From the IMG/VR virus record IMGVR_UViG_3300021354_000516, positions 1 to 56,645 of that record: 56,645 bases of DNA. One strand, 5' to 3'. The stretch is from a virus (lineage: Duplodnaviria > Caudoviricetes). The notes beneath the pieces are model-generated. The model had not been told where the DNA came from and did not search any database. It saw nothing but the letters and a program-made list of their open reading frames with translations. The position numbers were made by a program, and so were the translations under genes. Below, in pieces: positions 4,089 through 53,510 of the stretch (its first letter is position 1; the number at the start of each line of letters is the position of its first letter).

Positions 4089-5314
4089 TAATTATCTGCC
4101 TTAGGTTTAAGTACCTGCGATAATGCCTGACGTTCTTGAACAACCTGTCCAGCAATAGTTGCAGTATTATTGTTATTAATAAAGCTTGTTCGTTGAGTTT
4201 GTCTCATTCTAATTTGTTCTTGAGGAGTATTTTGATTATTTGTCATATTAGGATCATAACTATTTGTCATAGTCATTCTCACATTATCTTCAAACTTCAT
4301 CCAATTATGTCCGTTAAAACGAAACAACCGATTTGGAAAATAGTCTGTACGTAAATGGAATTGACCTTCAACTAATCCAGTACTTGGAAAGCTTATACCA
4401 AAAGTATAAGGAGCGCCATTAGGTGGTTGACCGTCGCCGACCATATATCCAACATAGTAGTTATGATTAGGACTTTTCAGTGTTAAACTTGCATCAATCA
4501 AATCACTGCTTGCATCACTAACACCTGTAATATCTTGACTTGCATCTTGTAAATCTAACAAACCATCAGTATGAGTGTTAGTGGGTAAAACATAAAGTTG
4601 TTTAGTATCATATCCAGCTCGTGGAGCATCTAATTCTGCTTGTGCAATAATAGCATTATTAGTTTGGATACTCAAGTTGTAAGTACTAATAATATCTTGT
4701 AAAGAACTACCATTTCCTGCTCCTGAATCAGCACCAAGTATCTCTGAAAATTCTTGACTATCTACCATCGGAACACATTTAACACGTAATAAGTGTGGAT
4801 ACCAAGTTTGACTAAAGCCGCTGCTTGCACGAGTAACATCTTGAACAACATAAAACCGTTTAAGTGCAACCATAGCATCGTCTAGTGCATATTCATCTTT
4901 CAAGTGCGGAAGTTCAATTACATCACCTGACATTATTTTTCGTCCGATAGTTCCGACACAGTTTCGTAAATGAAAGTGCATAAAGATATTATCGTTATTA
5001 AGAAAGATACCAAATTGACTAAGATTAAAGTCCAAGTCCTGCATTTGATAAATTCCTCTCATCACAAAGATATCCGGATCGTAATGTCGATCACGATTTT
5101 CCATTAAAATAATATCTTGGATTCCTAGTTCACCTATAGAACTAGTTTGATTTGGAACACCGGGAGTAGAAGTTCCGTCTTCTGGATTAACTGGTCCCAT
5201 ATATTTGTGAACATAGATATCTACACCGCCAACTTGAAATTGTTCTTCAATAACGCGGTCAAGGAATCTAAAATCGTTGCCCTTCTCTGGGCGGTACATT
5301 GATAGTCTTGGCAT
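4088..5314 (-). CDS. neck protein (T4 gp14-like)
   Basis: LSQFGIFL and GDVIELPH motifs; adjacent to gp13- and gp15-like genes. Confidence 0.65.
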   Translation of the reverse strand: MPRLSMYRPEKGNDFRFLDRVIEEQFQVGGVDIYVHKYMGPVNPEDGTSTPGVPNQTSSIGELGIQDIILMENRDRHYDPDIFVMRGIYQMQDLDFNLSQFGIFLNNDNIFMHFHLRNCVGTIGRKIMSGDVIELPHLKDEYALDDAMVALKRFYVVQDVTRASSGFSQTWYPHLLRVKCVPMVDSQEFSEILGADSGAGNGSSLQDIISTYNLSIQTNNAIIAQAELDAPRAGYDTKQLYVLPTNTHTDGLLDLQDASQDITGVSDASSDLIDASLTLKSPNHNYYVGYMVGDGQPPNGAPYTFGISFPSTGLVEGQFHLRTDYFPNRLFRFNGHNWMKFEDNVRMTMTNSYDPNMTNNQNTPQEQIRMRQTQRTSFINNNNTATIAGQVVQERQALSQVLKPKADN

Positions 5315-5319
5315 GTGTA

Positions 5320-5336
5320 TATTTATTGTATAAATA
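5320..5336. promoter_or_regulatory. back-to-back late promoters (TATTTA-N5-TAAATA)
   Basis: TAAATA on each strand, each 5 nt from an ATG (5314 minus, 5342 plus); T4 late consensus is TATAAATA. Confidence 0.75.
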
Positions 5337-5341
5337 ATATC

Positions 5342-6100
5342 ATGAGCACAATTGAATCAACCAGACAACCAGTAATTGAATATATCCGAGTAATGCTCGG
5401 AGATGGACTAATTGATGTTGAATTAGATCCGATACATTATAATACCTCAATAGACAGAGCATTTGCAAAGTATCGTCAAAAGAGTGCAAACTCTGTTGAA
5501 GAAAGTTTTGCATTTTTAACATTAGAACAAGATGTCAACGAATATACATTAAGTCAAGAAGTAATTGAAGTAAGACAAGTATTTCGAAGAAGTGTTGGAT
5601 CTAGAACAGGTGGTGGAGATACCGGAAGTTTATTTGAACCGTTTAACTTAGCGTATTCAAATACTTATTTGTTAAGTTCAAGTCAAATGGGCGGATTAGC
5701 AACTTATTATGCCTTTGCATCTTATCAAAAGATGGTAGGTAAAATGTTTGGAAGTGAAATCAATTTCACATGGAATCCAAGCACAAGAAAGATGACAATC
5801 ATGCAACGTCCACGTGGTGAAGAATCTGTATTGTTATGGTTATATAACACCAAACCTGAGTTTACTTTATTAAATGATCCTTATGCTGGTATATGGATCA
5901 AAGATTATGCATTAGCACAATCAAAAGTTATCTTAGGTGAAGCACGTGAAAAGTTTGGTCAAATTGCCAGTCCGCAAGGTGGTACAAGTTTAAATGGTAC
6001 TGCACTCAAAGCAGAAGGAATCGCTGCAATTGAAAAATTAGAATTAGAACTTGCAAATTATGCAACCGGCGAGAAGCCGATGTGGTTCGTTTGCGGCTAA
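5342..6100 (+). CDS. neck protein (T4 gp13-like); start refined to ATG 5342
   Basis: LGDGLIDVELD, WIKDYALA and GGTSLNG motifs typical of gp13. Confidence 0.8.
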   Translation: MSTIESTRQPVIEYIRVMLGDGLIDVELDPIHYNTSIDRAFAKYRQKSANSVEESFAFLTLEQDVNEYTLSQEVIEVRQVFRRSVGSRTGGGDTGSLFEPFNLAYSNTYLLSSSQMGGLATYYAFASYQKMVGKMFGSEINFTWNPSTRKMTIMQRPRGEESVLLWLYNTKPEFTLLNDPYAGIWIKDYALAQSKVILGEAREKFGQIASPQGGTSLNGTALKAEGIAAIEKLELELANYATGEKPMWFVCG

Positions 6101-6158: not shown

Positions 6159-6782
6159 ATGATTATAGGTTTTATAGGGTTAATAGGTTCAGGCAAAGAC
6201 ACCGCCGCCGATTACCTTGTTAATTTTCACGAGTTCCGCAAAGAATCATTTGCCGGAACACTCAAAGATGCAACTGCCGCAGTATTTGGATGGGATCGAA
6301 CGTTATTAGAAGGTCGGACCAAACAATCAAGAGATTGGCGAGAAAAAGTTGATATGTGGTGGTCAGAAAGATTAGGAATGCCGAATTTAACTCCTCGATG
6401 GATACTTCAATATTGGGGAACAGAGGTATGTCGTTTAGGATTTCATGACGATATATGGATTGCTAGTTTAGAAAATAAAATGCGTCAAACCAATGATAAC
6501 ATTGTTATAAGTGATGTACGTTTTCCAAATGAAATTAAAGCAATTCATAACGTTGGCGGAATAGTTGTTCGAGTAACCCGAGGAGAAGATCCTTATTGGT
6601 TTAATGATGCTATTAAAATGAATAGCGGAGACGAACAAGCTAAACAACGAATTCAAGAACAAGGAATTCATTCTAGTGAAACATCGTGGATCGGATCAAA
6701 AGTTGATCATGTTATTTCAAATAACGGTACAGTTGATGCATTATATCAGCAAATACAAGAGTTAATTAAAAGTCCGGAATAA
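6159..6782 (+). CDS. deoxynucleoside monophosphate kinase (T4 gp1-like)
   Basis: GLIGSGKDT P-loop, PRWILQYWGTE, ISDVRFPNE. Confidence 0.92.
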   Translation: MIIGFIGLIGSGKDTAADYLVNFHEFRKESFAGTLKDATAAVFGWDRTLLEGRTKQSRDWREKVDMWWSERLGMPNLTPRWILQYWGTEVCRLGFHDDIWIASLENKMRQTNDNIVISDVRFPNEIKAIHNVGGIVVRVTRGEDPYWFNDAIKMNSGDEQAKQRIQEQGIHSSETSWIGSKVDHVISNNGTVDALYQQIQELIKSPE

Positions 6783-7101
6783 GATCTCCCCTACGCCATG
6801 GTAGTTTAAGTTTATGCAGTATGCGTTGACAGTTTGCGCATACTGTTTTCAAATTAGTATATTGACAATTTTTAGGATTCCCGTCAGCATAGTATACTGA
6901 AAACTGTTCTTGATGTTGTCCAACAAATCCGCAGTGATCACATTTCATCTTCTTCCTATAACCTGCTTTATACCAAAGAGGTTTTCCAGGATGCCTTCCT
7001 TTAGCACAATGATCACATTTTGATCTATAAAATACCTTTCCTTCTTTGCGATAGTTGATCGCAACTGGTCTTTCTCCACACGTTTTACATAATGATCTCA
7101 T
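6766..7101 (-). CDS. Zn-binding HNH-like protein
   Basis: four CxxC pairs and NLKTVCANC. Confidence 0.7.
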   Translation of the reverse strand: MRSLCKTCGERPVAINYRKEGKVFYRSKCDHCAKGRHPGKPLWYKAGYRKKMKCDHCGFVGQHQEQFSVYYADGNPKNCQYTNLKTVCANCQRILHKLKLPWRRGDLIPDF

Positions 7102-7488
7102 GGTTTGCTCTTTCTTTTTATTTACTCGTTTATGTTTACTATATGTTCTCGGTTTTGCATTTTTTCTAGATTCTGAATTTTTAAGAAAAGGATGAGTTCC
7201 ATCTGCAACTCGTTTTTCTTGTGTTAATTTAGAAATTAATGATCTTTCTTCGGGAGTTATTTTTAAACGAAGGGCAATTAATTGACATGCACTCCAATCA
7301 CATTGAGCATAATGAATACTATAATGTTCTTGTAATGTTACTGCTTTTAAATTGTTAAAATCATTATTTTGATGATTTCAATCAATATGATGAATTTCGT
7401 ATGTTCTTCCGTCATTATCAATCGGAATTGGTCCGTTATGATATTCATAAATCTTTCGATAGTTTGTTGTTGTACAGTAAATACACAT
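7102..7488 (-). pseudogene. HNH homing endonuclease with in-frame TGA, continuous in frame with the 6766-7101 ORF
   Basis: Manual translation MCIYCTTTNYRKIYEYHNGPIPIDNDGRTYEIHHID*NHQNNDFNNLKAVTLQEHYSIH...; TGA at 7378-7380 replaces the Gly of HHIDGN. Confidence 0.8.
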
Positions 7489-7555
7489 GCTGATAGTTCC
7501 TTATAACTGTTAGAATCGATGGATATTCAAGTATCGCGATCGATACTTTTATTTA
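7489..7555 (-). promoter_or_regulatory. late promoter plus structured 5' leader (copy 1)
   Basis: TAAATA-AAAGT-ATCGATCGCGATACTTGAATATCCATCGATTCTAACAGTTATAAGGAACTATCAGC-ATG; homologous copy at 28293-28360. Confidence 0.7.
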
Positions 7556-7671
7556 TTCATAATTTAAAATCTACGCCCTTTTTCTCCCCTTTAAAATTTT
7601 TAAAATTCCAATGAAAATTTTTGATTAACACTAAATACTGCTGACAAAACCATAATTAGGAGATAAACTAA

Positions 7672-10600
7672 ATGGCTACACCACTTCAATCACCGGGCGT
7701 ACAAGTTTCAATAATAAATGAAAGCTTTTATACCCCAGCGGCACCAGGAACAGTTCCGCTAATTTTCGTTGCTTCGGCAAGTAATAAATTAAATCCTTCA
7801 GGAGCAACAGCCGTTGGCACAGCTCCAGTAAATGAAGGTAAAGTTTACCTAATAACAAGCCAAAGAGATCTTGTTGATACATTTGGCACACCATTGTTTT
7901 ACACTGATTCTTCAGGTAATCCGATACATGGTGGAGAATTAAACGAATATGGCTTACAAGCAGCTTATTCATTACTTGGTGTAAGTTCAGCAGCTTATGT
8001 TGTTCGTGCTCCAATTGATTTAGCTAGTTTAGTAGCAAAATCAAGTGCACCAGCAGGAGATCCAGCAGATGGTAGTTATTGGGTCAACACCGCTGACTCA
8101 TTATTTGGTATTTTTGAATGGAACAAGGTAAAAGGCACATTTACAAATAAAGTTCCACTTATAATAGATGATACTAATGCAAGTTTAAATTACAATAGCA
8201 ATGCACCTAAATCAAGTTTTGGTTTAGTTGGACAATACTGTATAGTGTTAAATCAACCAACTGTATCTGTTGATGATTCAGTAGTAACGGTATTCTATAA
8301 AAATTCAGATGCTAACTGGGTTGAAGTTGGTTCACATCATGACTCTTCTTTTACAACAAACAGTGCTAATTCAACTTTTATCAGTACAACTTGGTCAACC
8401 AGTCAACCTGCTGTAGTAGGAACCGGTACACCAAGTTCTGTTTCAATTAATAATAGTTCAACATTTACTATTAACGGAACAACTGTTGGAATTGCAAACA
8501 GTGATTCAGTTTCAGTAATTGCAGGAAAAATTAATGGTGCATTCCATACAACTGCAGGTGTTGGTGCAAAAGTAATAAAAGGTGCATTAGCATTATACTT
8601 AGATTCGTATAAAGCAAGTTCTTTTACACTTGCAGTATCAACTGATCTAGTAACTTCATTAGGAATTAGTTCAGGAACATATACTGCTCCTTCATTATTT
8701 GTTGGTCCACATACACAATATCCAGATTTTAGTTTAAAATCATCAGGTTCATTGTATTTAAAAACTACTTCACCAAATGAAGGTGCTAGTTGGATTGTTA
8801 AACAATGGTTAGCTACTTCAAATGCATTTAATACTGTAAAAGCTCCGATATATTCAAATGTAACAGCCGCAACTTATCAATTAGATAAAGTAGGTGGTGG
8901 AGCAAATATTCCAGTTGGAACAGTTTTTGTTGAAAGCAATTTTAACCATGGAGATAATTCTTCATCAACAAGTGTGATATTAGGAAATTTCAAAGTTCAA
9001 AGACGTGTTGCTGTAACTCCGACAACTATCACAGGTGCAGTTCATAATAACGCTGTAGCAATTTCAACTGCAACGTTGAAAATTGAAACAAGTTCTGCTG
9101 GTATTTCAGGTTATGTAAACACAGGAACTTTAACAATTCAAGGTTCATCAGATGGTTTAAATGCAGTTGTTAATGCAATTAACAATTCCGGAATTGAAAA
9201 TTTAGTTGCTACATTAAATGACGCTGGTACAGATTTGTATTCAGTTTCAATTAAACACACAGAAGGCGGAGAAATTCGTTTTACTGATAATGCAAATGTA
9301 TTAGGAACTGTTGGTTTTAGTAATTCAACATCTAATTTTTATTCATTAGATGCAGCGATTGAACCTTCAAAAGCAACACATCGTGCAAGTAATTGGAAAC
9401 CATTAACATTTACAGCATCTGATGTTGCACCAAGTACAACTCCTGCAAATGGACAATTATGGTATAGTTCGATTGTTGACCAAGTTGATATTATGGTACA
9501 CAACGGAAGTGATTGGAAAGGTTACCGAACTGTATATCCAGCTACAGATATCAATGGTCCAATAATAAGTGCTTCAGAACCAACAAAACAAAGTGACGGA
9601 ATAACAGATCTTGTAAATGGTGATATTTGGATAAGCACTGCTGATATTGAACGTTATGGTAAAGACATTTATGTTTATAATGGCTCTTCTTTAACATGGA
9701 TTCTTCAAGATACAACAGATCAAACTTCTCCAACCGGTTGGTTATTTGCAGATGCACGTTGGGCAACAAGTGGTCAAGCAACTTCTGCTAGTTCGATTAA
9801 AGATTTATTGTTATCTGACTATGTTGATCCAGATGCTCCAGATCAAGCTGAATATCCACGCGGTATGAGATTATGGAACTTACGTCGTTCAGGATTTAAT
9901 GTTAAACGTTTTGAAACAAATTATATTGATATTAATGCAAATGATGGTAAAAACTTACGTTATCAAAATGATCCGTTAAGTGATTATAATGTTAATCGTT
10001 GGGTTTCAGTAAGTCCTAATAATGCAGATGGTTCAGGAACATTTGGTCGCCATGCACAACGTTCATTTGTTGTTTCATCATTTAAATCAGTAATTGATAG
10101 TAACATATCAGCGCGTGATACTGATACATTAACATTTAATTTAATTGCAACACCTGGTTATCCAGAAGCAATTCAAAACATGGTATTGTTAAACGTTGAT
10201 CGTGGGTTAACTGCGTTTGTTATTGGTGATACTTCTTTCCGTTTAAAACCAACAGGTACTGATTTAGTAAATTATGGATTAAACAGAAACGGTGCTTTTG
10301 ATAACGGTGATGAAGGTCTTGTATCATATAATGAATACCTAGCTGCATTTTATCCAAGTGGTTACACTAATGACTTATCAGGAAATTACATTGTAGTTCC
10401 GCCAAGTCATATGATGTTACGTACTATTGCGTTAAGTGATCAAAAAAGTTATCCTTGGTTTGCACCAGCAGGTGTACGTCGAGGTGTAATTGACAATGCA
10501 ACATCAGTCGGTTATCTTGAAAATGGTGAATTTAAAGCAACTGCATTGCCAGAAAGTATTCGTAATGTAATGGCACAAAATGGTCATATTAATCCAATTG

Positions 10601-11712: not shown

Positions 11713-11728
11713 ATGACTAAATAATGCT

Positions 11729-13393
11729 ATGCCATCAATCGGATCCTATCTTCAACCAGTATTAAACACTGGTATACAAATGAAAGACTTTGCTCACGCA
11801 AGTCGACTTTATGCTGACAACGTTTTTGCACTTGCGCCTAAAGCAGGTTGGTTATATTACGTTGTATTTGATATTGAACCTGACGCAATTACTGATCAAC
11901 AATGGGCAAACCAACAACGAGTTAGTGAAGTTGGAATGTTAGTTAAAAGTGCCGATCTTCCTAAATTTAGTGTTCAAACAGAAGTTGTTAATCAATATAA
12001 TAGAAAAACTGTTATACAAAAAGGTATTAATTATAACCCGTTAAACATTACAATGCATGATGATCAATCAAATGTTGTACATAATATGTGGCTAAATTAT
12101 TACAGATATTATTATGCAGATTCAACCTGGGGCGGAAATGGTCCGATCGGAACTGCAAGAGATAATACTCCAGGAGCATATCAAAATAACAAGTATCTTC
12201 CTTCAAATGATTTGTTTACTCCTACAAATTATGGATTAAATTCACAATTAACCGTAGCACCATTTTTTAGAAGTATAACAATTTACCAACTTAATAGAAA
12301 AATATTTACAAGTTTTAAATTAATAAATCCACTCATTGCTTCATGGGAGCATGATAAATTAGATCAAACTTCAGGTAATAGATTAGCAGAAAGTAGAATG
12401 AGTGTTGCGTATGAAGCAGTTTTTTATGGAACAGGAAAAGTTAAAAAAGATAATCCTACAGGATTTGCAATGTTTCATTATGATACAAGTCCAAGTCCGT
12501 TAAGTTTAGCAGGTGGCGGAAATAATAGTATTTTTGGACCAGGTGGTATTATTCCTGGAGCACTTGAGATTTTTGGAGATGTTAGTAATATTCTTAATCC
12601 AAATGAATCAACAAGTCCGTTAAGTCTATTAGGAACAGTACTTAAAGGTGCAAGTTTAGTTAAAAATATTAAAAGTGTTACAAAAGATAGTCTTCGTGCT
12701 GAAGGATACAAAATCATAAATGGAACTTTGAGAAATATTTCTCAAGGTGGTTTAAATGGGTTAGGAGTTAATCTTAATTTAAACAAAGGAAATAATTATG
12801 TAACTGCGGGACAATTTTTAGGAACACCAGTTGCTGTTGTTACTGCTGCTGCAATTGCTCAAGAATTTAGTCAAGGTGCTAACGGATTATTACCAACTTC
12901 TGCTAATCCAAAAGATATAAGCATAAGTGTTTCTCAAAATATCGCAAATGCACGTGCTGCTATTAATAATTCAGCGCCAACTCTTGCTTCATCTGATACA
13001 ACTCCGTCAGGAACTACACCATCTGCAGGAACATATTTTTCACTTCCGAAACCATTAACAAATACAGCTCCGTTTTCAGCAGCAAATATCAATCAATTTA
13101 GTTCAGTTAATGATGTAAATAGTGCTCTTCAAAATTTACAAACAAACTGGTCTTCTGATAATGATTATGTTTCGAGTCAAATTCCGAATTCAACTGATGT
13201 TTCTAATAGATTGAATAATGCAACAAATTATACAGAATATTCAGCAATTAAGACTGATGCAATAGCTGCATTAAATGCATCAACGGATTTACAAAATAGT
13301 GTTGATGCAAAGTATCAAGCAGAGTATGATCGTCTTAGTTCGTTACAAGCTGAACTAACAAACAATATATCAAAAAGAAATACATTAGCATAA
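11729..13393 (+). CDS. tail tube-like baseplate/tube initiator (gp54/gp19 family) with long C-terminal extension
   Basis: VKSADLPKF..NQYNRK..YNPLNITMHDD tube-family motif. Confidence 0.65.
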   Translation: MPSIGSYLQPVLNTGIQMKDFAHASRLYADNVFALAPKAGWLYYVVFDIEPDAITDQQWANQQRVSEVGMLVKSADLPKFSVQTEVVNQYNRKTVIQKGINYNPLNITMHDDQSNVVHNMWLNYYRYYYADSTWGGNGPIGTARDNTPGAYQNNKYLPSNDLFTPTNYGLNSQLTVAPFFRSITIYQLNRKIFTSFKLINPLIASWEHDKLDQTSGNRLAESRMSVAYEAVFYGTGKVKKDNPTGFAMFHYDTSPSPLSLAGGGNNSIFGPGGIIPGALEIFGDVSNILNPNESTSPLSLLGTVLKGASLVKNIKSVTKDSLRAEGYKIINGTLRNISQGGLNGLGVNLNLNKGNNYVTAGQFLGTPVAVVTAAAIAQEFSQGANGLLPTSANPKDISISVSQNIANARAAINNSAPTLASSDTTPSGTTPSAGTYFSLPKPLTNTAPFSAANINQFSSVNDVNSALQNLQTNWSSDNDYVSSQIPNSTDVSNRLNNATNYTEYSAIKTDAIAALNASTDLQNSVDAKYQAEYDRLSSLQAELTNNISKRNTLA

Positions 13394-16302: not shown

Positions 16303-16316
16303 CATTAAATAAAAGT

Positions 16317-17930
16317 ATGGCAAAATCACTCGACGGCAACTTAATTAAAAGTGCCAACAAAAAACAAAAGTTTACAGAACAAGATCTACTTGACATCTCA
16401 TTATGTATAAACGATCCTCACTATTTCCTTAAGAATTTTTTCTTTATTCAACATCCTACTAAAGGTAAGATGAAATACGATGCATTTGAATATCAAAAAG
16501 AATTATTAGATAGTTATAACAATAATCGATTTAGTGTTAATATGCTAGGACGGCAGATGGGAAAAGCATTATCACTCGATACTCCTATTATAACACCAAC
16601 AGGATTTACCACAGTTGGTAATATTAAAGTAGGTGATACAATATTTGGTAGGAACGGAAAAACAACAAATGTAACATTTATTACTGAAATAATGAACGAT
16701 CGTCCGTGCTATGAAATAGAATTTACTCACGGTGATACCATTATTGCTGATGCAGAGCATTTATGGAACATCCAATTACCAAAAAAAGAAAGTGAAATCA
16801 CTATTACTACTTTAGAATTAATATCACACTTTAATAAATTAAAAGATACAACACAGAGTTTACATATTAAATCATCTGAATGTTTAGATTTTGATTTTAC
16901 ACCTGTTCCGATTGATCCGTATTATCTCGGACTATGGTTAGGTGATGGCAGTAGTAAAGATACTAGAATTACATGTTCTATTGATGATTATTCAGAATAT
17001 TTAAATTTCTTTAAAACAAATAATATTACCTTATCTCCTTTTAAACTTGATTCTCTTTCAACAAAAACCGGAACATTTTATGTTCCTGGTGGTGCAAGTA
17101 AATTAAAAGATTTAGGAGTATGGGGGAATAAGCATATTCCAGATCAATATATTTTTAATAGTAAAGAAGTTCGTTTAGAATTACTAAAAGGATTAATGGA
17201 TTCAGTTGGTACTTGTGAAAAATCAGGAGTTTCTAGATTTTATCAAAGTAATGAGACATTTATAGATCAAGTGAGATTATTATTATCAACCTTAGGAATT
17301 AAATCAACTAAAGGAGTGAATGAAACAACTCACAAAGATTGCTATACATTATGTTTTGCAGAAAAAACATTGGAGATCTTTAAATTACCAAGAAAATTAG
17401 AAAGACAACAATTGTTATTTGATCATCAACAGAATAAAAGATTTTATATTAAAGATATTAAATTGATAGATAGTGTACCAGTTCGATGTCTTCAGGTTGA
17501 TAATATAGATCATATGTTCTTATGCGGTACTACTTTAATACCAACCCATAATACAACCACAGCAGTTGGATATCTACTTTGGTATGCAATGTTTGTTCCT
17601 GATAGCACTATTTTAATCGCCGCACACAAATATACAGGTGCTAAAGAAATTATGCAAAGGTTACGCTATGCATACGAAACATGTCCTGATCATATTCGTT
17701 GCGGTGTAACAAGTTATAATAAAGAAAGTATAGAATTTGATAATGGTAGTCGTATTGTTGCACAAACAACTACAGAAACAACCGGTCGTGGTATGTCTTT
17801 ATCTTTACTTTATTGCTTAGATGGCGAAAGTACTACTGTTAAGGTTAGAAATAAACAAACATTGGTTGAGGAAGATATAACTCTTAAAGAATTATACACA
17901 AGATTGTATAATCCATTAATCATAATTTAA
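16317..17930 (+). CDS. terL: terminase large subunit, N-terminal fragment (contains a cis intein and ends in a split-intein N half)
   Basis: DPHYF, RQMGK|TT Walker A, IEFDNGSRI, GRGMSLSLLY then CLDGES...stop. Confidence 0.93.
   Translation: MAKSLDGNLIKSANKKQKFTEQDLLDISLCINDPHYFLKNFFFIQHPTKGKMKYDAFEYQKELLDSYNNNRFSVNMLGRQMGKALSLDTPIITPTGFTTVGNIKVGDTIFGRNGKTTNVTFITEIMNDRPCYEIEFTHGDTIIADAEHLWNIQLPKKESEITITTLELISHFNKLKDTTQSLHIKSSECLDFDFTPVPIDPYYLGLWLGDGSSKDTRITCSIDDYSEYLNFFKTNNITLSPFKLDSLSTKTGTFYVPGGASKLKDLGVWGNKHIPDQYIFNSKEVRLELLKGLMDSVGTCEKSGVSRFYQSNETFIDQVRLLLSTLGIKSTKGVNETTHKDCYTLCFAEKTLEIFKLPRKLERQQLLFDHQQNKRFYIKDIKLIDSVPVRCLQVDNIDHMFLCGTTLIPTHNTTTAVGYLLWYAMFVPDSTILIAAHKYTGAKEIMQRLRYAYETCPDHIRCGVTSYNKESIEFDNGSRIVAQTTTETTGRGMSLSLLYCLDGESTTVKVRNKQTLVEEDITLKELYTRLYNPLIII
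16566..17552 (+). mobile_element. 329-aa class-3 intein with LAGLIDADG domain in TerL Walker A
   Basis: Ala1 (ALSLDTPI), block B ADAEHLW, block F VRCLQV, block G PTHN|T; LGLWLGDG and LKGLMDSVG motifs. Confidence 0.9.
17814..17927 (+). mobile_element. split intein N-fragment (38 aa)
   Basis: CLDGESTTVKVRNKQTLVEEDITLKELYTRLYNPLIII then TAA; block A at the Walker B junction. Confidence 0.85.
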
Positions 17931-20278: not shown

Positions 20279-20294
20279 AAGAATAAATATATAA

Positions 20295-22658
20295 ATGAAA
20301 CCAATAGACATTATCGCATTAGATTTATTTGAAAAAGTTCGCAGTCGTTTTACAAACCTTCAATTAGGTGATAAAGACGGGACTGTTACGGCTGAACCAT
20401 CAGCCGCTAGATTCTTTGATTTTGATTTTGCCGTTGAAGGAACAACGTTAGGGCGAGTTAGTATTAGCATTAACGATACCGGCAATTTAAAGATCTTTTA
20501 TAGTCAAGGTATTACAGAAAATGCCGACCCTATCACACAATCAATGTGGTATGATTTTTTAAAAGAAATGCGTTTTTTTGCAAAACGTAGATTATTAAGA
20601 TTTGATACACGAGATATTACAAAAGGTAATTTGGACAAAACAGATTTCCAATACCTAGCCCAAAATGGACCTAAGGATAACAACATGAACGAATCATCAC
20701 TAACAGGAAGTTCAAAAACTTCACATAGAAAATTAGAAAATACAGATTTAATTATTCGTCATTCTGAAGCAATTGATCCTACTAAACCAGGAGCACGTAG
20801 TCGTAAAATTAAAAATTTGTTTATTCAAAATCAAGAAGGTGAACGTTTTAAATTTCCATTTGTTTATCTTCCAGGTGCTCGTGCAATGCAACGTCATATT
20901 TCAAATGGTGGTTATCCACATGATGAAGCAGGTAAACACATTGTTAAAACTTGTGAAGAAATATTAAAATTAAGTGACTTTGGTCGTAAAGTTAAACATT
21001 CAACATTAAATGATAATGCACACGGTATTATCGAACGTGCTGGACAAAAATTAAAATCTTTACGTCATCATATGGAATGTATGGCGAAACAAAATTATTA
21101 CGAAGCATGGAAAGAAACATATGCACCAGATGATTCAAATTTAATCGAACTTGATGCTGCAACAATGGAAAGTTATAAAGATACTTTTACAGTTAATAAA
21201 TTTGATGAAGCACTTTCAGATATGTTTCCTTTATTGCATTCAATTATGCAAGAAGCAGGTGAAATTGATTTAGAAGCTATAGTAAGCGAAGGTATCGAAG
21301 AAGATCAAACAACCGAAGATATTGCTTCTGCACTTGAATTTGCTGCATTTGAATCATGGACTGATAGCGTAATGAATGAAGGTTTATCAGATGACGAATT
21401 AGCTGCACTTGAACAAATTGTTCAAGAACCATTACCAGTTGGTGCAAATGATGAAGCAGTACAAGCATTAGCAGGAGTTGGCATTCAAGATCCTGCATTA
21501 ATAAAAGCAATTCGTGCTACTGCGGCAATGCCAAATGGTGAAAATACAGATGCAAGAACAATAATCCAAACATATTTAGGTGCTGATGCAGGTAAAATAA
21601 GTTTCGGTGATTTAGATAACCAAGCACCACAAGCAGCTCCTGCACAACCTGCTCAGACTGCGGCACCAGCTGAAGAACCTGCAATGGCAGAAGCAATTAG
21701 TCCTTTTGCAAAAAATACACGTAAAGTTGCATCGTTTGATGGCGATCATGGCGCAACTGCTGAAGTTCGATTTGATCATGAAAATGGATACCAAGTTCAT
21801 TTTTATAAAAATGGTCAACATTTAGGTTCTAACAATATCGAGTATTTTAGAAATGATAAAAAAGAAGCCATTGAATTTGCAAAACAAGAAGTTGGTATAT
21901 CAGAAGATGTTTCTGAAGGTTCATATTATGGTCCAGAAGATTTCCAAGATTGGTTACATGATGCAACTCATCGTGTTGCACATGGTAAAGTTGGTGATTG
22001 GACTGAACTTGCTGCCGAATTAACAACCGATCTAGGGTTTGATGATAATAAAGCAGAACGTATTGCACAACGTATTTACGGACATGAAAAGTTAGCACCA
22101 AAAAGGGTCAACCCAATTGATTTAGAAAAAGATATCCCAAATGATCACGATGATGACGATGATTCTGCATTCTTAAATAAATTACGTAGACAAGCACGTT
22201 CAGGTTCAATTCCACAAGGATTAGATACAGGTGATGATGTTGATGAAGACGATATTCAACCTGATTCAAAAAACAAACTTATCGAAAAAGGTAGTCAAGC
22301 AAAAGAAATTGCTCAGATTATTTTAGGATTTTATGATCGTGATAAAGGAACCTGGACCAAAGGTGAACATGGCGTTGTTACCCATGTAAAACGACAATTC
22401 AGTGATGAAGACGGCCGAGGTGGCGAAAAAGAAGCTGCAATTGCTGCAAAACTAATTCAACACTTAAATGCAAAACACGATCGCGATGATGAAGGTCTTA
22501 TCGGTGGAGCAATTGGAGGAGTTCTCGGCGGAATGGTAGGCGGACCATTAGGTGCTATTGGTGGTTATTCTGCAGGAAGTAAAGCAGGAGATGATTTAAC
22601 AAGCGAAAACAAAGCATTTGAAGACATTTTAAGATTTGCAGGTCTAAAAAAGATTTAA
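20295..22658 (+). CDS. large acidic virion-associated hypothetical protein with C-terminal glycine zipper
   Basis: 787 aa; TAAATA-N5-ATG; GLIGGAIGGVLGGMVGGPLGAIGG. Confidence 0.7.
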   Translation: MKPIDIIALDLFEKVRSRFTNLQLGDKDGTVTAEPSAARFFDFDFAVEGTTLGRVSISINDTGNLKIFYSQGITENADPITQSMWYDFLKEMRFFAKRRLLRFDTRDITKGNLDKTDFQYLAQNGPKDNNMNESSLTGSSKTSHRKLENTDLIIRHSEAIDPTKPGARSRKIKNLFIQNQEGERFKFPFVYLPGARAMQRHISNGGYPHDEAGKHIVKTCEEILKLSDFGRKVKHSTLNDNAHGIIERAGQKLKSLRHHMECMAKQNYYEAWKETYAPDDSNLIELDAATMESYKDTFTVNKFDEALSDMFPLLHSIMQEAGEIDLEAIVSEGIEEDQTTEDIASALEFAAFESWTDSVMNEGLSDDELAALEQIVQEPLPVGANDEAVQALAGVGIQDPALIKAIRATAAMPNGENTDARTIIQTYLGADAGKISFGDLDNQAPQAAPAQPAQTAAPAEEPAMAEAISPFAKNTRKVASFDGDHGATAEVRFDHENGYQVHFYKNGQHLGSNNIEYFRNDKKEAIEFAKQEVGISEDVSEGSYYGPEDFQDWLHDATHRVAHGKVGDWTELAAELTTDLGFDDNKAERIAQRIYGHEKLAPKRVNPIDLEKDIPNDHDDDDDSAFLNKLRRQARSGSIPQGLDTGDDVDEDDIQPDSKNKLIEKGSQAKEIAQIILGFYDRDKGTWTKGEHGVVTHVKRQFSDEDGRGGEKEAAIAAKLIQHLNAKHDRDDEGLIGGAIGGVLGGMVGGPLGAIGGYSAGSKAGDDLTSENKAFEDILRFAGLKKI

Positions 22659-26783: not shown

Positions 26784-28219
26784 TTAAAGATGAAATTAAC
26801 GTAAAAATTGAAGGACTCGATCTTGATTCAAGAAAAGAATTAGTAAAAAAGTTCAAGTACTTTGATCAATCTGCACGATATAAACCTGCATTTAAACTCG
26901 GTCGATGGGATGGATGTACTGCATTTTTTGGTTTAGGCGGAACTACTTATGTTAGTTTATTAGATAGAGTTTTACCATTATTAGAGCAATGGGGTTATTA
27001 CATCGAAATTGAAGATTTACGTAATCCAATTTCATTAAACTTTGATAAAGTTGCAGAAGACTTTTGGGGAGATTTAACCTGGCCAGAAGGACATCGATTT
27101 GCTGGACATTTAATAAGATTACGTGAAGATCAAGTTGAAGTTGTTAATAAATTTTTAGAGAATCCGCAATGTATACAGGAGATTGCTACAGGATTTGGGA
27201 AGACAATCACAACAGCAACTTTATCAAAAATATGTGAAAAGTTTGGAAGAACTATAACAATTGTACCAAATAAAGATCTTGTTGTTCAAACTGAAGAAGA
27301 TTTTCTTAATTGTCAATTAGATGTCGGAGTTTACTTTGGTGATCGAAAAGAATTAGGAAAAACTCATACGATATGTACTTGGCAAAGTTTAAATATTTTA
27401 GATAAACGATCAAAAAATACAACAGATGACGAATTGTTAACACTTGCAGAATTACTTGAAAATGTACAATGTGTTATGGTTGACGAAGTGCATATGGCAA
27501 AGGCAGAGGTTCTAAAAAAACTATTAACACAGAATATGTCAAATACTCCAATCCGTTGGGGTCTAACCGGAACTGTACCTAAAGAAGATATTGATTTTGA
27601 AAATATTCGTGCAAGTTTAGGTGAAGTTGTACATCGTGTTAAAGCACATGAATTACAAGAAGCTGGTGTGTTAAGTACATGTCACGTTAATATCATTCAA
27701 ACACAAGAATGGAAAGAGTTTGGGTCTTATCCAGAAGAATTAAAATACCTTGTTACAGATTCTGATAGAATGGAATGGATTTCAAAGTTAGTAAAAAGTA
27801 TTTCAGAAACCGGAAATACACTTGTATTAGTAGATAGAATCGAATCAGGTGAATTTATTATTAACGAAATTCCTGATTCGGTATTCATTAGTGGTAAGAT
27901 AAAATCAAAAAAACGAAAAGAACAGTATCGAGAAGTAGCAACGAGTGATGATAAAATTATCGTTGCAACTTATGGTGTAGCGGCTGTAGGTATCAACATT
28001 CCGAGAATTTTTAATTTAATTCTTTTAGAACCAGGAAAAAGTTTTGTAAGGGTTATACAAAGTATCGGGCGTGGCATTAGAAAAGCTGAAGATAAAGATT
28101 TTGTAAACATTTATGATATTACAGCAAATACAAAGTACGCCAAACGGCATCTTTCTGAAAGAAAACGTTTCTATAAAGATGCAAAATATCCATTTACAGT
28201 CGAAAAGGTAAAGTACTAA
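26762..28219 (+). CDS. uvsW: SF2 DNA helicase
   Basis: ATGFGKT, DEVH, GLTGT, QSIGRGIR. Confidence 0.92.
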   Translation: MATARIVIKDEINVKIEGLDLDSRKELVKKFKYFDQSARYKPAFKLGRWDGCTAFFGLGGTTYVSLLDRVLPLLEQWGYYIEIEDLRNPISLNFDKVAEDFWGDLTWPEGHRFAGHLIRLREDQVEVVNKFLENPQCIQEIATGFGKTITTATLSKICEKFGRTITIVPNKDLVVQTEEDFLNCQLDVGVYFGDRKELGKTHTICTWQSLNILDKRSKNTTDDELLTLAELLENVQCVMVDEVHMAKAEVLKKLLTQNMSNTPIRWGLTGTVPKEDIDFENIRASLGEVVHRVKAHELQEAGVLSTCHVNIIQTQEWKEFGSYPEELKYLVTDSDRMEWISKLVKSISETGNTLVLVDRIESGEFIINEIPDSVFISGKIKSKKRKEQYREVATSDDKIIVATYGVAAVGINIPRIFNLILLEPGKSFVRVIQSIGRGIRKAEDKDFVNIYDITANTKYAKRHLSERKRFYKDAKYPFTVEKVKY

Positions 28220-28221
28220 TA

Positions 28222-28291
28222 ACAATTCTCTTGACTTTGCTCTAGAAATCATGTTATTATAAACACCAGTATACTTGTTTTGTAAATATAT
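28222..28291 (-). pseudogene. N-terminal remnant of an HNH-type homing endonuclease
   Basis: (I)YLQNKYTGVYNNMISRAKSRELL directly follows leader copy 2; ATA stands where ATG is expected. Confidence 0.5.
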
Positions 28292-28292
28292 A

Positions 28293-28360
28293 GCTGATAG
28301 TTCCTATACTCTGTTAGAGTTGATGAATATTACAAGTATCGCGATCGACAATTTTATTTA
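28293..28360 (-). promoter_or_regulatory. late promoter plus structured 5' leader (copy 2)
   Basis: TAAATA-AAATT-GTCGATCGCGATACTTGTAATATTCATCAACTCTAACAGAGTATAGGAACTATCAGC; homologous to 7489-7555. Confidence 0.7.
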
Positions 28361-28373
28361 TAAGGAGATTAAT

Positions 28374-28877
28374 ATTCAGATCCTAACTTTAGAAAACAAA
28401 ACTTTTTATTTAAATGAATTACCAGATGAAGTTGATGATGATTTACGATTTGCAGTATTAGATAATAGTGATAATCACAATCCTGATTATTTTTATTTGC
28501 CATTAATATTCTTAGAATCATTTACAGGTCCTGCCGCAGTATTAAAGATCGGTCAATGGGAAATAACCATGCCACTTGATTGGTGTGCAGTTGTAGGTGA
28601 TCCAACTGGTCCAGAAATGGAAGTTTTACCTTTGACAAGTTTAAATGATCGAGGATTTACAACATTTACATTTAATCCGTTAACATCATTTAGACCAGAA
28701 TTTTATGAAATTGATATTATCAATGTTTATCAAGATGTTAAATGGTATTTTCCAAAAATGAAACCTGGACAATTATTATGTACTCCGTTGCATGGAGGAG
28801 AAAAACCCGTATGTGCTTATTTTGTTAAAGAAGTAAGTCGTCAAAGTGAAATTGTTCAATATACAAAATGTTGGTAA
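28374..28877 (+). CDS. hypothetical phage protein; probable ATT start
   Basis: SD AAGGAG 6 nt before ATT-CAG-ATC-CTA; the upstream in-frame extension overlaps the leader element. Confidence 0.65.
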   Translation: MQILTLENKTFYLNELPDEVDDDLRFAVLDNSDNHNPDYFYLPLIFLESFTGPAAVLKIGQWEITMPLDWCAVVGDPTGPEMEVLPLTSLNDRGFTTFTFNPLTSFRPEFYEIDIINVYQDVKWYFPKMKPGQLLCTPLHGGEKPVCAYFVKEVSRQSEIVQYTKCW

Positions 28878-28886
28878 GGAAATTAG

Positions 28887-29342
28887 ATGGCACTTGATAT
28901 CAAAAGAGAACTTTCAAATGTTGACCTTAGAAACTATAATTTCTATGATAATTTAACTCCAGAAGAAAAGAAAGAATTTAGTCCTTATGTACTAATGCGA
29001 TATGTTGCCAATGTCGATGGTAATAGAGATTTACAAGAATGGTTTTTAGAAAGAACAAATGAATTTGTTAATAAAGATCATTGGTCATTAAGTAAGAATC
29101 ATAAAGCATTACTTTGGAAATTATTTGCAGGAGTAGGTATTGGATCAAAGATGTATCATCCATATCTTAAAGCCGGATCAAAAGAAAAAGCAGTTAAGAT
29201 TGAAAAGTTATTAGCTGAGTTATATCCAGCAATGAAAATGTCAGATATTAAATTACAAGCTAAATTAATGACAAAAGCAGATAAAACTGAGTTATTTGAT
29301 AGCATGGGTTTTGATAAAAAGAAACGTAAAGAGTACGAATAA
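28887..29342 (+). CDS. hypothetical protein, possibly clamp-loader small subunit (gp62)-like
   Basis: FSPYVLMRY motif; replication context. Confidence 0.45.
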   Translation: MALDIKRELSNVDLRNYNFYDNLTPEEKKEFSPYVLMRYVANVDGNRDLQEWFLERTNEFVNKDHWSLSKNHKALLWKLFAGVGIGSKMYHPYLKAGSKEKAVKIEKLLAELYPAMKMSDIKLQAKLMTKADKTELFDSMGFDKKKRKEYE

Positions 29343-32206: not shown

Positions 32207-32224
32207 TTATCGATAAATATTAGT

Positions 32225-33124
32225 ATGAATCATTTACCAGTTTATTTATACTCCAACACACTTAATGTAATATTTGATGTGGATCAAAGCAAAGGAATCA
32301 ACAAAATCATGTATCAGCGCAAACTAAAAATTCAAAAAGGGTTTAAAGACTCAATACAGATACAGTTTAAAAACTCTGATCAGAAGCCAATTTGGTTATC
32401 AACAACAACTAATTATTGGTTTGATATGATTGATTCAAGTGGACGTCAACTTGTTTTAAGTAAACCATTAAGGTTAGTCGATGATAGCGTTACTACATCA
32501 ACAAAAGGTCTAGCACTTGCAAGTTTTGATCCAATTGATACAATAAATGTAACAGCCGCAAGTTATAAATTTATTGTTAAACAAGATAACGGTGATGGTA
32601 CATTTACACCAGCATACTCAAATACATATTACGGTATTACAGGTGAAGTTGAAGTTGTTGAAGACGGGTTTCCTCTAGGGTTTCCAATTCAAACGGTTGA
32701 TATGAAACGATTAGAAACTGCAAAAGAATATGATAGAAATCCAAATAATCTAGGTTATTTCTTTACAAGTGATTGGTTACGTCCGACTGTACGTCCTACA
32801 ACTGTTCAAACTACATCAACTGCAATTATTTCATTAGCAAGTTTTGCCGGTGAAGTGCGAGTAGAAGGAACACTTGACAATAATCCAAGTGGTCAAGGAC
32901 ATGCAAATGCACAAGTTTTTACTCTTACAAATTATATATCAGCTACACCTGCGCAAGGAACTATTCAATTAACCTGGAATGGTGATTTTACAGCAGTACG
33001 TTTTAGAATACAACCAGCACGTAACGGATTAGGAACAAATTATTATCCAACAGGTTTCCCAATTGGATCAAATACTAATAAATTTCCGTCCGGATTCATT
33101 GACCAAATACAATATATCAGTTAA
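32225..33124 (+). CDS. late, probably structural beta-rich protein
   Basis: TAAATA-N5-ATG; 299 aa. Confidence 0.65.
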   Translation: MNHLPVYLYSNTLNVIFDVDQSKGINKIMYQRKLKIQKGFKDSIQIQFKNSDQKPIWLSTTTNYWFDMIDSSGRQLVLSKPLRLVDDSVTTSTKGLALASFDPIDTINVTAASYKFIVKQDNGDGTFTPAYSNTYYGITGEVEVVEDGFPLGFPIQTVDMKRLETAKEYDRNPNNLGYFFTSDWLRPTVRPTTVQTTSTAIISLASFAGEVRVEGTLDNNPSGQGHANAQVFTLTNYISATPAQGTIQLTWNGDFTAVRFRIQPARNGLGTNYYPTGFPIGSNTNKFPSGFIDQIQYIS

Positions 33125-47659: not shown

Positions 47660-47720
47660 AAATAGTTCTCATGTTAATTTTATTTTATTTATATACATAC
47701 ATAATTGTATGTAAATTTAT

Positions 47721-50700
47721 TTAATCATTTTCAATAATAGCCGATGTATGATGACGACCTCCTGATAATTGTTTCCAATTTGTTCCACGTACTACGGTTT
47801 GAACTGGTGAACTTTTATCGGTTGTTGAATTATCACCCAGTTGTCCATATGCATTATATCCCCAAATCCATAAAGTTCCGTCAGTTTTTATTCCTGCTGT
47901 TTGATAACTGCCACCGCAAGCTTGTTTCCAATTATTTCCTTGCGCTACGGTTTGAACTGGTAAACTTCTATTAGTTGTTGTATTATCACCAAGTTCTCCA
48001 TCGCCATTATAACCGCAGGTCCATAAAGTGCCGTCAGTTTTTACTGCTGCTAATGATCTACGTCCGCAACTTACTTGTTTCCAGTTATTTGAACTCGCCA
48101 ATGTTTGAATTGGAGAACTTTTATAGGTTGCAGTATTATCACCTAGTTCTCCACTATTATTAAACCCCCAAGTCCATAAAGTGCCATCAGTTTTTATTGC
48201 CGAAGTGTGCTGATATCCACCCGCAACTTGTTGCCAATCTGTTCCAAGTGCGATAGTTTGAACTGGTGAACTTCTACTAGTTCGTGTATTATCGCCAAGT
48301 TTTCCATAAGTATTATTACCCCAAGTCCATAAAGTGCCATCAGTTTTAATTGCTGCGGTAAATAATTGACCACACGCAACTTGTTTCCAATTAGTACCAC
48401 CTGCAATTGTTTGAACTGGTTGACTTCTACTAGTTGTTGTACTATCGCCAAGTTTTCCATTTGAATTCAATCCCCAAGTCCATAAAGTTCCATCAGTTTT
48501 TATTGCTGATGTAAAATTATAACCCATAGAAACCTGTTGCCAGTTATTTGAACTCGCTAATGTTTGAATTGGAGAACTTTTTGAAGTTGCTGTGTTATCG
48601 CCAAGTTGTCCGCTTGAATTCAATCCCCAAGTCCATAAAGTTCCATCGTTTTTTATTGCCGAGGTAAAGTTTTGTCCACACGCAACTTGTTGCCAATTAG
48701 TTCCAAATGCAATAGTTTGAACTGGAAAACTTCTCGCAGGTACTGTACTATTATTACTACTATCGCCAAGTTGTCCCCAAACATTATCACCCCAAGTCCA
48801 TAAAGTTCCATCTTTTGTTATTGCAGAGGTAAAATTTCCACCACACGCAACTTGATTCCAATTAGTACCACCTACTATAGTCTGAATTGGTATACTTCGA
48901 TCAGTCTGTGTGCTGTCACCAAGTTGTCCAAGATTATTTCTCCCCCAAGTCCATAAAGTGCCATCTGCTTGAACTGCTACCGTATGAATACTTCCTGCAG
49001 AAACTTGTTTCCAATTTGTTCCTAGTGCTATAGTTTGAACTGGTGAACTTCTACTTGCCTGTGTACTATCGCCAAGTTGCCCAGTTCCATTAAAACCCCA
49101 GGTCCATAAAGTTCCATCTGTTTTAGTTGCTGCGGTAAAAGATTGACCACACGCAACTTGTTGCCAAGTAGTACCACCTGTAATTGTTTGAACTGGTGAA
49201 CTTCTACTAGTTTGTGTACTATCGCCAAGTTGCCCAAATGGATTTGACCCCCAAGTCCATAAAGTGCCATCAGTTTTAATTGCTGCGGTAAATAATTGAC
49301 CACACGCAACTTGTTTCCAATCTGTTCCAGGTGCGATAGTTTGAACTGGTTGACTTCTACTAGTTTGTGTACTATCGCCAAGTTGTCCACTAGCATTATT
49401 ACCCCAAGTCCATAAAGTTCCGTCAGTTTTTATTGCCGCGATGTGACTAACCCCAGCCGATACTTGTTTCCAATTTGTTCCAAGTGCTATAGTTTGAACT
49501 GGTTGATATTTTACAGTAATAGTACCATCGCCAAGTTGCCCAGTTCCATTATTTCCCCAAGTCCATAAAGTTCCATCAGTTTTAATTGCAGCAGTAAATG
49601 CTATACCACACGCAACTTGTTTCCAGTCATATGTACCGGTTAAAGTTTGAACTGGTGAACTTTTATCAGATGATGTGTTATCGCCAAGTTGTCCATTTAC
49701 ATTATTTCCCCAAGTCCATAAAGTGCCATCAGTTTTTACTGCTCCAGTATGGTTTGAATCAGGTAAAGAAGGAGAAGATTGTCCGCATGAAACTTGTTTC
49801 CAATTATTTCCGAGAGCAATAGTTTGAACTGGTGAACTTCTATTAGTTGTGGTAGAATCACCAAGCTCACCACTAAAATTATGTCCCCAAGTCCATAGTG
49901 TTCCATCTTTTTTTATTGCCGTAGTACTTCTATTTCCACCTGATACTTGTTGCCAAGTATTACCACCTGCAATTGTTTGAACAGGTGAACTTCTCGCCGA
50001 TACAGTACTACTATTACTACTATCGCCAAGTTGTCCAGAAGTATTGTCTCCCCAAGTCCATAAAGTACCATCATTTTTTATTGCAACAGTACCATCGACA
50101 CTACTCGAAACTTGATTCCAATTAGTACCACCTGCAATTGTTTGATTTGGTATACTTTGATCAGTCTGTGTATTATCACCGAGTTGTCCTTTTGTATTTG
50201 ACCCCCAAGACCATAAAGTTCCATCAGTTTTTATTGCTGCGGTAGAATAGGTAGAAACAGTAACTTGTTTCCATATATTTGAACTTGCTAAAATTTGAAA
50301 TGGAGAACTTCTAAGAGTTGAAGAATTATCACCTAGTTGTCCATACGCATTATCACCCCAAGTCCATAAAGTGCCATCAGTTTTTATTGCTGCTGAAAAA
50401 ATTTCTCCACATGACACTTGTTTCCAATCTGTTCCAAATGCGATAGTTTGAACTGGAGAACTTCTACCAGTAACGGTTGTACTATCACCAAGTTGTCCAT
50501 TTACATTATTTCCCCAAGTCCATAAAGTGCCATCAGTTTTTATTGCAGCAGAATGCCATCTTCCGCCTGTAACCAGTTTCCAATTTGTTCCACGTACTAC
50601 GGTTTGAACTGGTGAACTTTTATTGGTTGTTGAATTATCACCTAGTGCTCCATAAGTATTTTCTCCCCAAATCCATAAAGTTCCGTCAGTTTTTATTCCT

Positions 50701-51086: not shown

Positions 51087-51159
51087 TTTTTTTCCTTTTA
51101 TTCTGTGTATTTAAATTAATAATTACAAATAAATTTAATTTTTAATATTGCTATAATAA

Positions 51160-53499: not shown

Positions 53500-53510
53500 A
53501 TTTATTTCCT

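Follow-up and report, generated by a model that had tools for sequence, protein, structure and literature searches.

The stretch analysed here, referred to as the window, comprises the whole 56,645 nucleotides (nt) of DNA from the IMG/VR virus record IMGVR_UViG_3300021354_000516, which belongs to Caudoviricetes. Two copies of a short element were found on its minus strand at 7489-7555 and 28293-28360, as a first-pass annotation made from the sequence alone had reported, and this element, which lies at the 5' end of homing endonuclease genes (HEGs), is the subject of the present analysis. The description of the two downstream genes as unrelated and dead HNH genes was also borne out, with an I-TevIII-like HNH gene following copy 1 and a Mob-like HNH gene following copy 2. 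Alignment of copy 2 with copy 1 showed 85% identity over 80 nt (E 3.4e-18). A 16-mer common to both copies had 2 occurrences in the window against 0.16 expected, and the pattern of the 3' block had 2 occurrences against 0.01 expected, a number that none of 100 shuffles reached. A covariance model scored the copies at 91.6 and 74.3 bits, and the next-best match in the window at 19.7 bits. This weak match at 46079-46179 on the minus strand (E 0.038) covers the second hairpin and the T-rich tail only and may be an ordinary terminator of like shape. Both copies terminate at the start-codon position in ...GGAACTATCAGC and have a TAAATA hexamer 5 nt ahead of the first helix of the HEG strand, in agreement with the earlier description. 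The features of the two copies are as in Table 1.

Table 1. Features of the two element copies, of the genes that follow them and of related start sites in the window (ORF, open reading frame; MFE, minimum free energy).
Feature	Position	Strand	Remarks
I-TevIII-like HNH homing endonuclease ORF (copy 1)	7102-7488	minus	phrog_12324, E 4.1e-28; in-frame TGA
TAAATA box, promoter-like, for predicted antisense RNA of copy 1	7478-7483	+	Within codons 2-4 of the opposite-strand HNH ORF
First hairpin (P3') and predicted 5' end (7489, sixth nt after box), copy 1	7489-7513	+	Stem 7490-7498/7505-7513; MFE fold
Second bulged hairpin (P1', single G-C pair, P2'), copy 1	7515-7544	+	5' arm 7515-7526, loop 7527-7530, 3' arm 7531-7544
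U-rich tail ACUUUUAUUUAUU, presumed end of antisense RNA, copy 1	7545-7557	+	Putative terminator function
TAAATA box, promoter-like, for HEG mRNA of copy 1	7550-7555	minus	Predicted start 7544, first base of P1
Mob-like HNH gene remnant, about 25 codons (copy 2)	28215-28292	minus	Alignment to intact L079 and L111 genes
TAAATA box for predicted antisense RNA of copy 2	28283-28288	+	Sequence and model match
Predicted antisense RNA of copy 2	28293-28362	+	P3' 28294-28300/28311-28317; second hairpin 28319-28349; U-rich tail 28350-28362
TAAATA box on HEG strand, copy 2	28355-28360	minus	Sequence
TAAATA-N5-ATG at long ORFs	5312-5325(-), 5331-5344(+), 11718-11731(+), 16306-16319(+), 20284-20297(+), 32214-32227(+)		No Shine-Dalgarno sequence

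Pattern scans of IMG/VR located the 3' block at no fewer than 119 loci, to which the 5' block added 11. A covariance model (R1), made to escape the bias of the patterns, was run on 44 whole records and produced 75 matches, being present in 44 of 44 records with 1 to 10 matches per record; overall, 51 whole records were searched with the covariance model. The family consists of at least 158 instances in IMG/VR phage contigs, at least 130 found by pattern and 28 by the covariance model. Among the matches listed, 130 of 131 pattern matches were real and one (L076) was spurious. A start codon was found 0-8 nt downstream in 124 of these 130, opening an ORF of at least 87 amino acids (aa) or one running off the contig, and the other 6 had downstream ORFs of 6-16 aa. 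For the 107 distinct ORFs of at least 100 aa among the matches listed, PHROGs search showed 78 hits with phrog_314 (annotated as homing endonuclease), 38 with phrog_655 and 11 with phrog_12324, and Pfam search showed 36 hits with NUMOD3, 16 with HNH, 6 with HNH_3, 3 with GIY-YIG and 2 with SegE_GIY-YIG. Classification by N-terminus gave several GIY-YIG types, Mob-like HNH and I-TevIII-like HNH, and one module, often with identical helix arms including those of P1, precedes different classes. The 28 pattern-free matches all face the start of an HEG-like ORF. Every instance examined lies at the 5' end of a free-standing HEG, and these HEGs belong to unrelated families, which upholds the earlier proposal of a portable element that moves together with phage homing endonucleases. 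The record of L124 (G043) carries 10 copies within 155 kb, each ahead of an HEG and with about 8 different first-hairpin sequences between them.

The structure was analysed in an alignment of 106 distinct instances, from which L076 and two instances cut by contig ends were excluded and in which identical rows were collapsed. The base pairs of the first-pass annotation proved to be the correct pairs and showed strong covariation, and the compensatory change it had noted between the copies was found at the outermost pair of the outer stem, where copy 1 has A-U and copy 2 has G-C. Changes on both sides were present in 11 of the 12 pairs of the long hairpin. RNAalifold, run unguided, recovered the same two hairpins with compensatory changes in 11 of 16 pairs. 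Paired cells amounted to 97.5% compared with 84.2% in shuffles, none of 500 of which reached 97.5%, and the slid-partner control gave a pairing of at most 49.3%. Overall, the element is well supported as a structured RNA family with real covariation that is absent from Rfam.

The strand that carries the selected fold was indicated by the mismatched cells. Non-Watson-Crick cells of P1 on the HEG strand were 52 A.C, 1 G.U and 1 other, where an A.C on this strand is a G.U on the opposite one, and the junction pair showed 6 A.C and 0 G.U; the counts at P1 and at the junction are independent of the search pattern. The hairpin that contains the Shine-Dalgarno sequence had 210 A.C and 1 G.U on the HEG strand, a count that depends on the search pattern. 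Pairing was 97.5% on the antisense strand vs 83.6% on the HEG strand, and 97.9% for the first hairpin on the antisense strand. The MFE was lower on the antisense strand in 106 of 106 instances (mean -18.9 vs -10.6 kcal/mol) and in 27 of 27 (mean -18.6 vs -12.4 kcal/mol). Copy 1 itself folded on the plus strand into the consensus structure at -16.4 kcal/mol (z -2.69), and on the minus strand into a differing structure at -9.9 kcal/mol (z -1.22). The G.U vs A.C asymmetry and the folding energies together place the selected structure antisense to the HEG, on the plus strand of the window.

This result bears on the view of the first-pass annotation that the structure is an RNA leader of the HEGs. 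In that case it would act in the 5' leader of the HEG mRNA and control its translation, like the hairpins that sequester the ribosome-binding site (RBS) in T4 I-TevI, segB and mobE. According to the accessible text of PMC2988022, T4 I-TevI, I-TevII, I-TevIII and segB as well as Aeh1 mobE have an mRNA hairpin over the RBS and a late promoter within the hairpin, so that late promoters and RBS hairpins are both in use at T4 HEGs. The likeness to this control, as that text presents it, is that the nuclease would be kept low or late by a late promoter just upstream together with RNA folding around the Shine-Dalgarno sequence. If the upstream TAAATA is a promoter, the element would be the 5' untranslated region of the HEG (the box is 5 nt before P1 in 104 of 106), and a late-type promoter motif does lie immediately upstream of the gene; the long hairpin also forms on the mRNA strand, at -7.6 kcal/mol. 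However, the imperfect hairpin said to enclose the Shine-Dalgarno sequence is scarcely stable there, with a mean of -1.46 kcal/mol on the mRNA vs -7.3 kcal/mol on the antisense strand for the RBS hairpin alone (family means). Two of its positions are fixed A.C mismatches on the mRNA strand (106 of 106 and 101 of 106), and the Shine-Dalgarno sequence is unpaired with a probability of 0.60. The P1 counts given above point the same way. All helices lie downstream of the predicted start, and late transcripts lacking the 5' arm of a hairpin are thus not expected, nor is a promoter-dependent switch of the T4 type. The element therefore differs from T4-type HEG control: its hairpin has almost no stability on the mRNA strand, and the fold under selection belongs to the opposite one. 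A long-range helix joining the upstream TAAATA to the TATTTA box, as could form in read-through transcripts, was rejected as well. Its variable pair is A.C in 13 sequences with 0 double changes, so compensation is lacking, and the TATTTA box persists where the upstream box is lost. Action through the HEG leader is consequently very unlikely. What stands of the earlier cis-regulatory proposal is a structured RNA that travels with HEGs, and what falls, by the mismatch asymmetry and the folding energies, is its assignment to the mRNA leader; the alternative of a small RNA, also raised by that annotation, is the reading favoured here. The asymmetry of G.U pairs can in this way overturn an otherwise reasonable leader interpretation.

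Read on the antisense strand, members of the family show a common order of TAAATA, a 5-nt spacer, G, the first hairpin, 1-2 linker bases, a GC-rich hairpin and ACUUUUAUUUA. The loop of the first hairpin has CCUU or CUCC, an anti-Shine-Dalgarno sequence, which in copy 1 is contained in CCUUAU. The GC-rich hairpin has a conserved bulged G and an unpaired G, and in copy 1 the G residues at 7536 and 7538 are unpaired. The 12 nt past the stem contain a mean of 7.0 T with a minimum of 4. The inner box, which lies within the first HEG codons, was TAAATA in 115 of 134 members (90/106 and 25/28) and stands 5-7 nt from the first paired base in 104 of 106. Its reading frame within the HEG was frame 2 in 76 ORFs, frame 0 in 27 and frame 1 in 14, and the box was absent in 2. 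For 51 ORFs beginning M-x-I-Y, chosen by protein start alone, the third base of codon 2 was T in 51 of 51, across eight codons, compared with a background of 34%, and the Ile codon was ATT in 50 of 51 compared with a background of 51%; these sequences are related and no probability is attached to the codon constraint. The codon usage indicates that the constraint on the box is exerted at the nucleotide level. On the HEG side, TAAATA was found at the aligned position in 87 of 106 instances, plus shifted copies, and about 8 of 106 were boxless. A subgroup (L025, L037, L047, L054, L105 and L109) has GTCAAC or GTCAAG and an A-run in place of the upstream TAAATA and retains the inner box, both hairpins and the U-rich tail, which makes the putative HEG-side promoter the more dispensable part.

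The TAAATA boxes were also surveyed over the window. The hexamer was present at -90 to -15 of 11 of 50 long ORFs compared with 4.5% expected, and it was enriched ahead of structural genes. TAAATA-N5-ATG lacking a Shine-Dalgarno sequence occurred 9 times against 3.0 expected, mostly at starts of long ORFs (Table 1), and two of these starts come directly after a hairpin and T-run. The arrangement suggests leaderless late mRNAs in this phage, and its excess suggests that transcripts begin at the sixth base after the box. By this rule the foot of the first hairpin would be the start of the antisense RNA, and the HEG mRNA would begin with the first base of P1. In the giant phages CBB and GAP32 (about 350 kb), a late-promoter role has been proposed for ATAAATA, which was likened to the late promoter of T4 (PMC5259590). 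No sigma-70-like site was found on the element in either copy.

Based on these features, the element is probably the gene for a cis-antisense RNA of about 65-70 nt that limits expression of the HEG. A late-type TAAATA promoter within the first HEG codons would fire away from the gene, and the small RNA would start at the foot of a 9-bp hairpin whose loop is the anti-Shine-Dalgarno sequence, run on through the bulged GC-rich hairpin and stop in a U-tract that is the complement of the HEG's own putative TAAATA promoter region. The two predicted promoters would face each other at about 55-60 bp apart, so that the small RNA would be complementary, almost base for base, to the HEG leader from the first nucleotide up to a point just short of the start codon. 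Assuming the sixth-base start, the predicted RNA covers the whole leader including the Shine-Dalgarno sequence and ends 1-4 nt from the start codon in most members. The stable GU-rich fold would belong to the small RNA and the HEG leader would remain open; loop-to-loop pairing at the RBS would then make the nuclease mRNA less stable or less well translated, with interference from face-to-face transcription as a further effect.

Several observations weigh against this reading. The sequence of the first hairpin in the main set was fixed by the search pattern, for which reason the covariance model was built and whole records were searched; the resulting pattern-free set (28 matches, 26 distinct) showed 7 of 9 first-hairpin pairs changed on both sides and 99% pairing, in an alignment that was itself fitted to the model. 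The sequences are moreover related, so the cell counts of either set do not represent independent events. Copy 2 folds no better than its shuffles (-10.1 kcal/mol, z -0.35), and in the comparison with the model the top of P3' and the base of P2' were mismatched, which marks it as partly decayed. The inner box is TAAGTA in 16 of 134 members and lost or otherwise changed in 3. As a terminator the second hairpin is atypical, since its stem has a bulge and an unpaired base and ends 2 nt before the U-run, and a simple terminator scan did not call the consensus hairpin in either copy. The scan flagged another hairpin with the same tail (GUAUCG/CGAUAC, copy 1), which was rejected as specific to copy 1 and not family-wide. 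At copy 2 and its relatives the Shine-Dalgarno sequence of the next gene follows directly after the U-tract and has no box of its own, so read-through would have to occur there and termination could not be complete. In addition, both putative promoters are of one class and no timing switch is evident, and three RNA sequencing runs of the same sample gave no placement on 7300-7800.

The orientation of the HEGs relative to their neighbours brings in two further explanations. By a rough ORF heuristic applied to redundant loci, 76 of 103 loci had their upstream neighbour (within 400 nt) on the opposite strand, and 66 of 84 their downstream neighbour; in the other 27 of the 103 the upstream neighbour was co-directional with the HEG, and there the whole unit including the box is still intact (e.g., L034). 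The HEGs are thus mostly inverted, which in most cases puts the structure on the strand of the neighbours, the one on which a terminator would work. The main rival of the antisense RNA is accordingly a composite promoter and terminator cassette with no regulatory RNA, in which the hairpin and U-tract halt transcription that crosses the inverted HEG, the TAAATA boxes tie the HEG and its neighbours to the late programme, and the module serves as a recombination point for HEG swaps. Such a cassette would resemble the PeSL cassettes of T4-like phages, which the accessible text of PMC4122927 describes as composite promoter-terminator motifs mediating modular shuffling. Both are small, conserved, genome-repeated composite motifs, and the element may, like the PeSLs, lie at the joints between unrelated genes. 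Shuffling would fit the finding that one module, even with identical P1 arms, precedes GIY-YIG, Mob-like HNH and I-TevIII-like HNH genes; the same module was seen ahead of at least three unrelated HEG classes. PeSLs as described there have early promoters and are untied to HEGs, whereas the element has late-type facing boxes and a covarying RBS hairpin, and its conserved boxes are TAAATA rather than an early sigma-70-type promoter with a stem-loop. Furthermore, a terminator needs no first hairpin, yet this hairpin is kept and covaries, and it needs neither an upstream box at a fixed distance nor conserved bulged G residues. In the 27 loci whose neighbours are not on the antisense strand the unit is no less intact, and the stop signal would sit at the far end of the HEG, past the point where antisense transcription has already crossed it. 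A cassette devoid of regulatory RNA is therefore judged unlikely.

Alternatively, the promoter and hairpins could form the leader of a neighbour of the HEG, a phage gene on the antisense strand; the HEG would then supply a substitute promoter to the gene that it had displaced. In 76 of 103 loci the element is closely followed by the start of the next gene on that strand, the Shine-Dalgarno sequence directly after the U-tract at the copy 2 site fits such a role, and T4 HEGs hold embedded promoters for their neighbours in the accessible portion of PMC2988022. However, the distance to the next gene varies from overlap to hundreds of nt, and 27 loci have a convergent gene instead. Past copy 1, the sheath gene has a TAAATA of its own, which lies downstream of the element and 40 nt ahead of the ATG, and a hairpin and U-tract between promoter and gene would hinder expression. 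A leader of the neighbouring gene is extremely improbable on these grounds.

To our knowledge, no selfish genes are commoner in large phages than those for homing endonucleases, and how HEGs stay harmless is known for only a few T4 genes, through mRNA hairpins and autorepression. An antisense module of the kind favoured here would, if true, be a new answer to the restraint of HEGs, common to unrelated GIY-YIG and HNH genes in hundreds of giant-phage contigs. It would represent an RNA family new to Rfam and a regulatory cassette that moves independently of the gene it controls, and it would offer a ready supply of natural sense/antisense pairs. A further extension, quite unlikely at present, is that each HEG has its matched antisense 'governor' RNA, that the modules have diversified into orthogonal pairs and that solo copies which outlast their nuclease gene, such as copy 2, protect in trans against re-invasion or against arrival of the same HEG with a co-infecting phage. 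Such governors would amount to an RNA-based control of homing comparable to the multicopy inhibition of transposons.

Among known antisense systems, RNA-OUT of IS10/Tn10 is a small stable antisense RNA whose promoter faces that of the transposase and which is complementary to the 5' end and RBS of RNA-IN. The likeness is that a mobile element restrains its own DNA-cutting or DNA-moving enzyme by an antisense RNA from a facing promoter, which for the present element is a prediction. The differences are that the element sits in a phage, is associated with a homing endonuclease and not a transposase, and has two hairpins and T4-late-like promoters, and it has no sequence or Rfam relation to RNA-OUT. 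The features expected of a cis-antisense RNA are found to the following extent: an opposite-strand promoter at the 5' end of the target is present at the level of a motif, complementarity to the RBS region of the target follows from the geometry if the sixth-base start holds, and the antisense stem-loops are stable and conserved. As far as the accessible part of PMC12197685 describes them, sar of P22 (68/69 nt) base-pairs to ant mRNA and represses its synthesis, and OOP of lambda (77 nt) is cis-acting; both are, like the predicted RNA, short antisense RNAs encoded by phages, with a target mRNA as pairing partner. They are single-copy lysogeny regulators of temperate phages, whereas the element is portable, occurs in many copies (up to 10 per 155 kb) and is joined to selfish nuclease genes. 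CfrI of cyanophage S-PM2 is a detected antisense RNA of about 225 nt opposite an HEG in a T4-like phage (accessible parts of PMC2984593 and PMC12197685). It differs in linking the HEG to psbA, and those texts describe no conserved two-hairpin module common to many HEG families.

Searches outside the IMG/VR phage contigs showed the following. Rfam 15 at gathering thresholds gave 0 matches in the whole window, and with E values up to 10 allowed, two chance matches were obtained over the 6.2 kb that surround both copies, neither of them on the element; the check that the first-pass annotation had proposed thus finds no known family matching it. A blastn search with both copies and a consensus-like member left the element unmatched in 50,697 phage records. 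The covariance model had no match on the cultured giant phages PA5oct, Atu_ph07, Phosso and SCTP-2, and on RaK2, GAP32 and CBB it gave only 19-21-bit matches within non-HEG genes. Bacterial and archaeal genomes produced 40 pattern matches, 38 of which were rejected by the model. The two that passed (L223 815-899 and L229 1903-1986) are on contigs of 3.5 and 3.0 kb in Erysipelotrichaceae- and Bacteroides-labelled bins of metagenome-assembled genomes; these contigs are probably phage DNA inside the bins and carry no host signal. Finally, no published description of the element was found in a search outside of which supplements and most subscription journals lay, so that its absence from print is unproven.

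The DNA of the HNH ORF following copy 1 showed 71.6% identity to genes of T4-like phages annotated as I-TevIII. Its single in-frame TGA at 7378-7380, the one defect of the ORF, falls at a conserved Gly position, corresponds to Gly in a 66%-identical homologue (the L010 ORF) and could be a recent inactivation, a sequencing error or a site of read-through. Use of TGA as a sense codon was set aside because other long ORFs of the window are open under table 11. Lacking a stop of its own, the frame continues into the resident Zn-ribbon ORF at 6766-7101 (6766-7488, minus). The Mob-like HNH class of copy 2 has about 33% identity to annotated HNH homing endonucleases of T4-like phages. Its remnant has ATA at 28289-28291 in place of ATG, and homology to the L079 and L111 genes extends only as far as the 3' end of the helicase gene next to it. 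The earlier argument that the leaders are better preserved than the ORFs does not hold as a sign of selection, because the two ORFs are of different HEG classes, and the copy 2 remnant resembles its own relatives (L079, L111) as much as the element does.

The conserved gene past copy 2 (phrog_11279, about 28363-28877, plus strand) has no ATG, GTG or TTG after its AAGGAG. Relatives of this gene are found in L033, L042, L079, L111, L006, L038, L083, L100 and L072, and ATT occurs 3-6 nt after GGAG in 9 of 10 phages, so that the gene may use ATT as its start codon.

The record of the window has a CheckV completeness of 15%, and the GC content of the window is 33%. Its gene content includes tail sheath, helicase, dNMP kinase and virion proteins. 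The closest cultured sheath proteins, at about 47% identity, come from Phosso, Atu_ph07 and PA5oct, all of them giant phages. Related contigs are up to 317 kb long, with an estimated completeness of 89%, from which phages of roughly 350 kb are expected. The carriers of the element are a lineage of uncultured giant myophages. A 151-aa ORF at 28887-29342 was considered as a gp55-like late sigma factor and was rejected, having no support from PHROGs or Pfam. In addition, the region 47675-56400 on the minus strand has dozens of 153-nt direct repeats that encode RCC1 repeats in very large ORFs, one of which (1121 aa, 47724-51086) contains 20 RCC1 repeats by Pfam.

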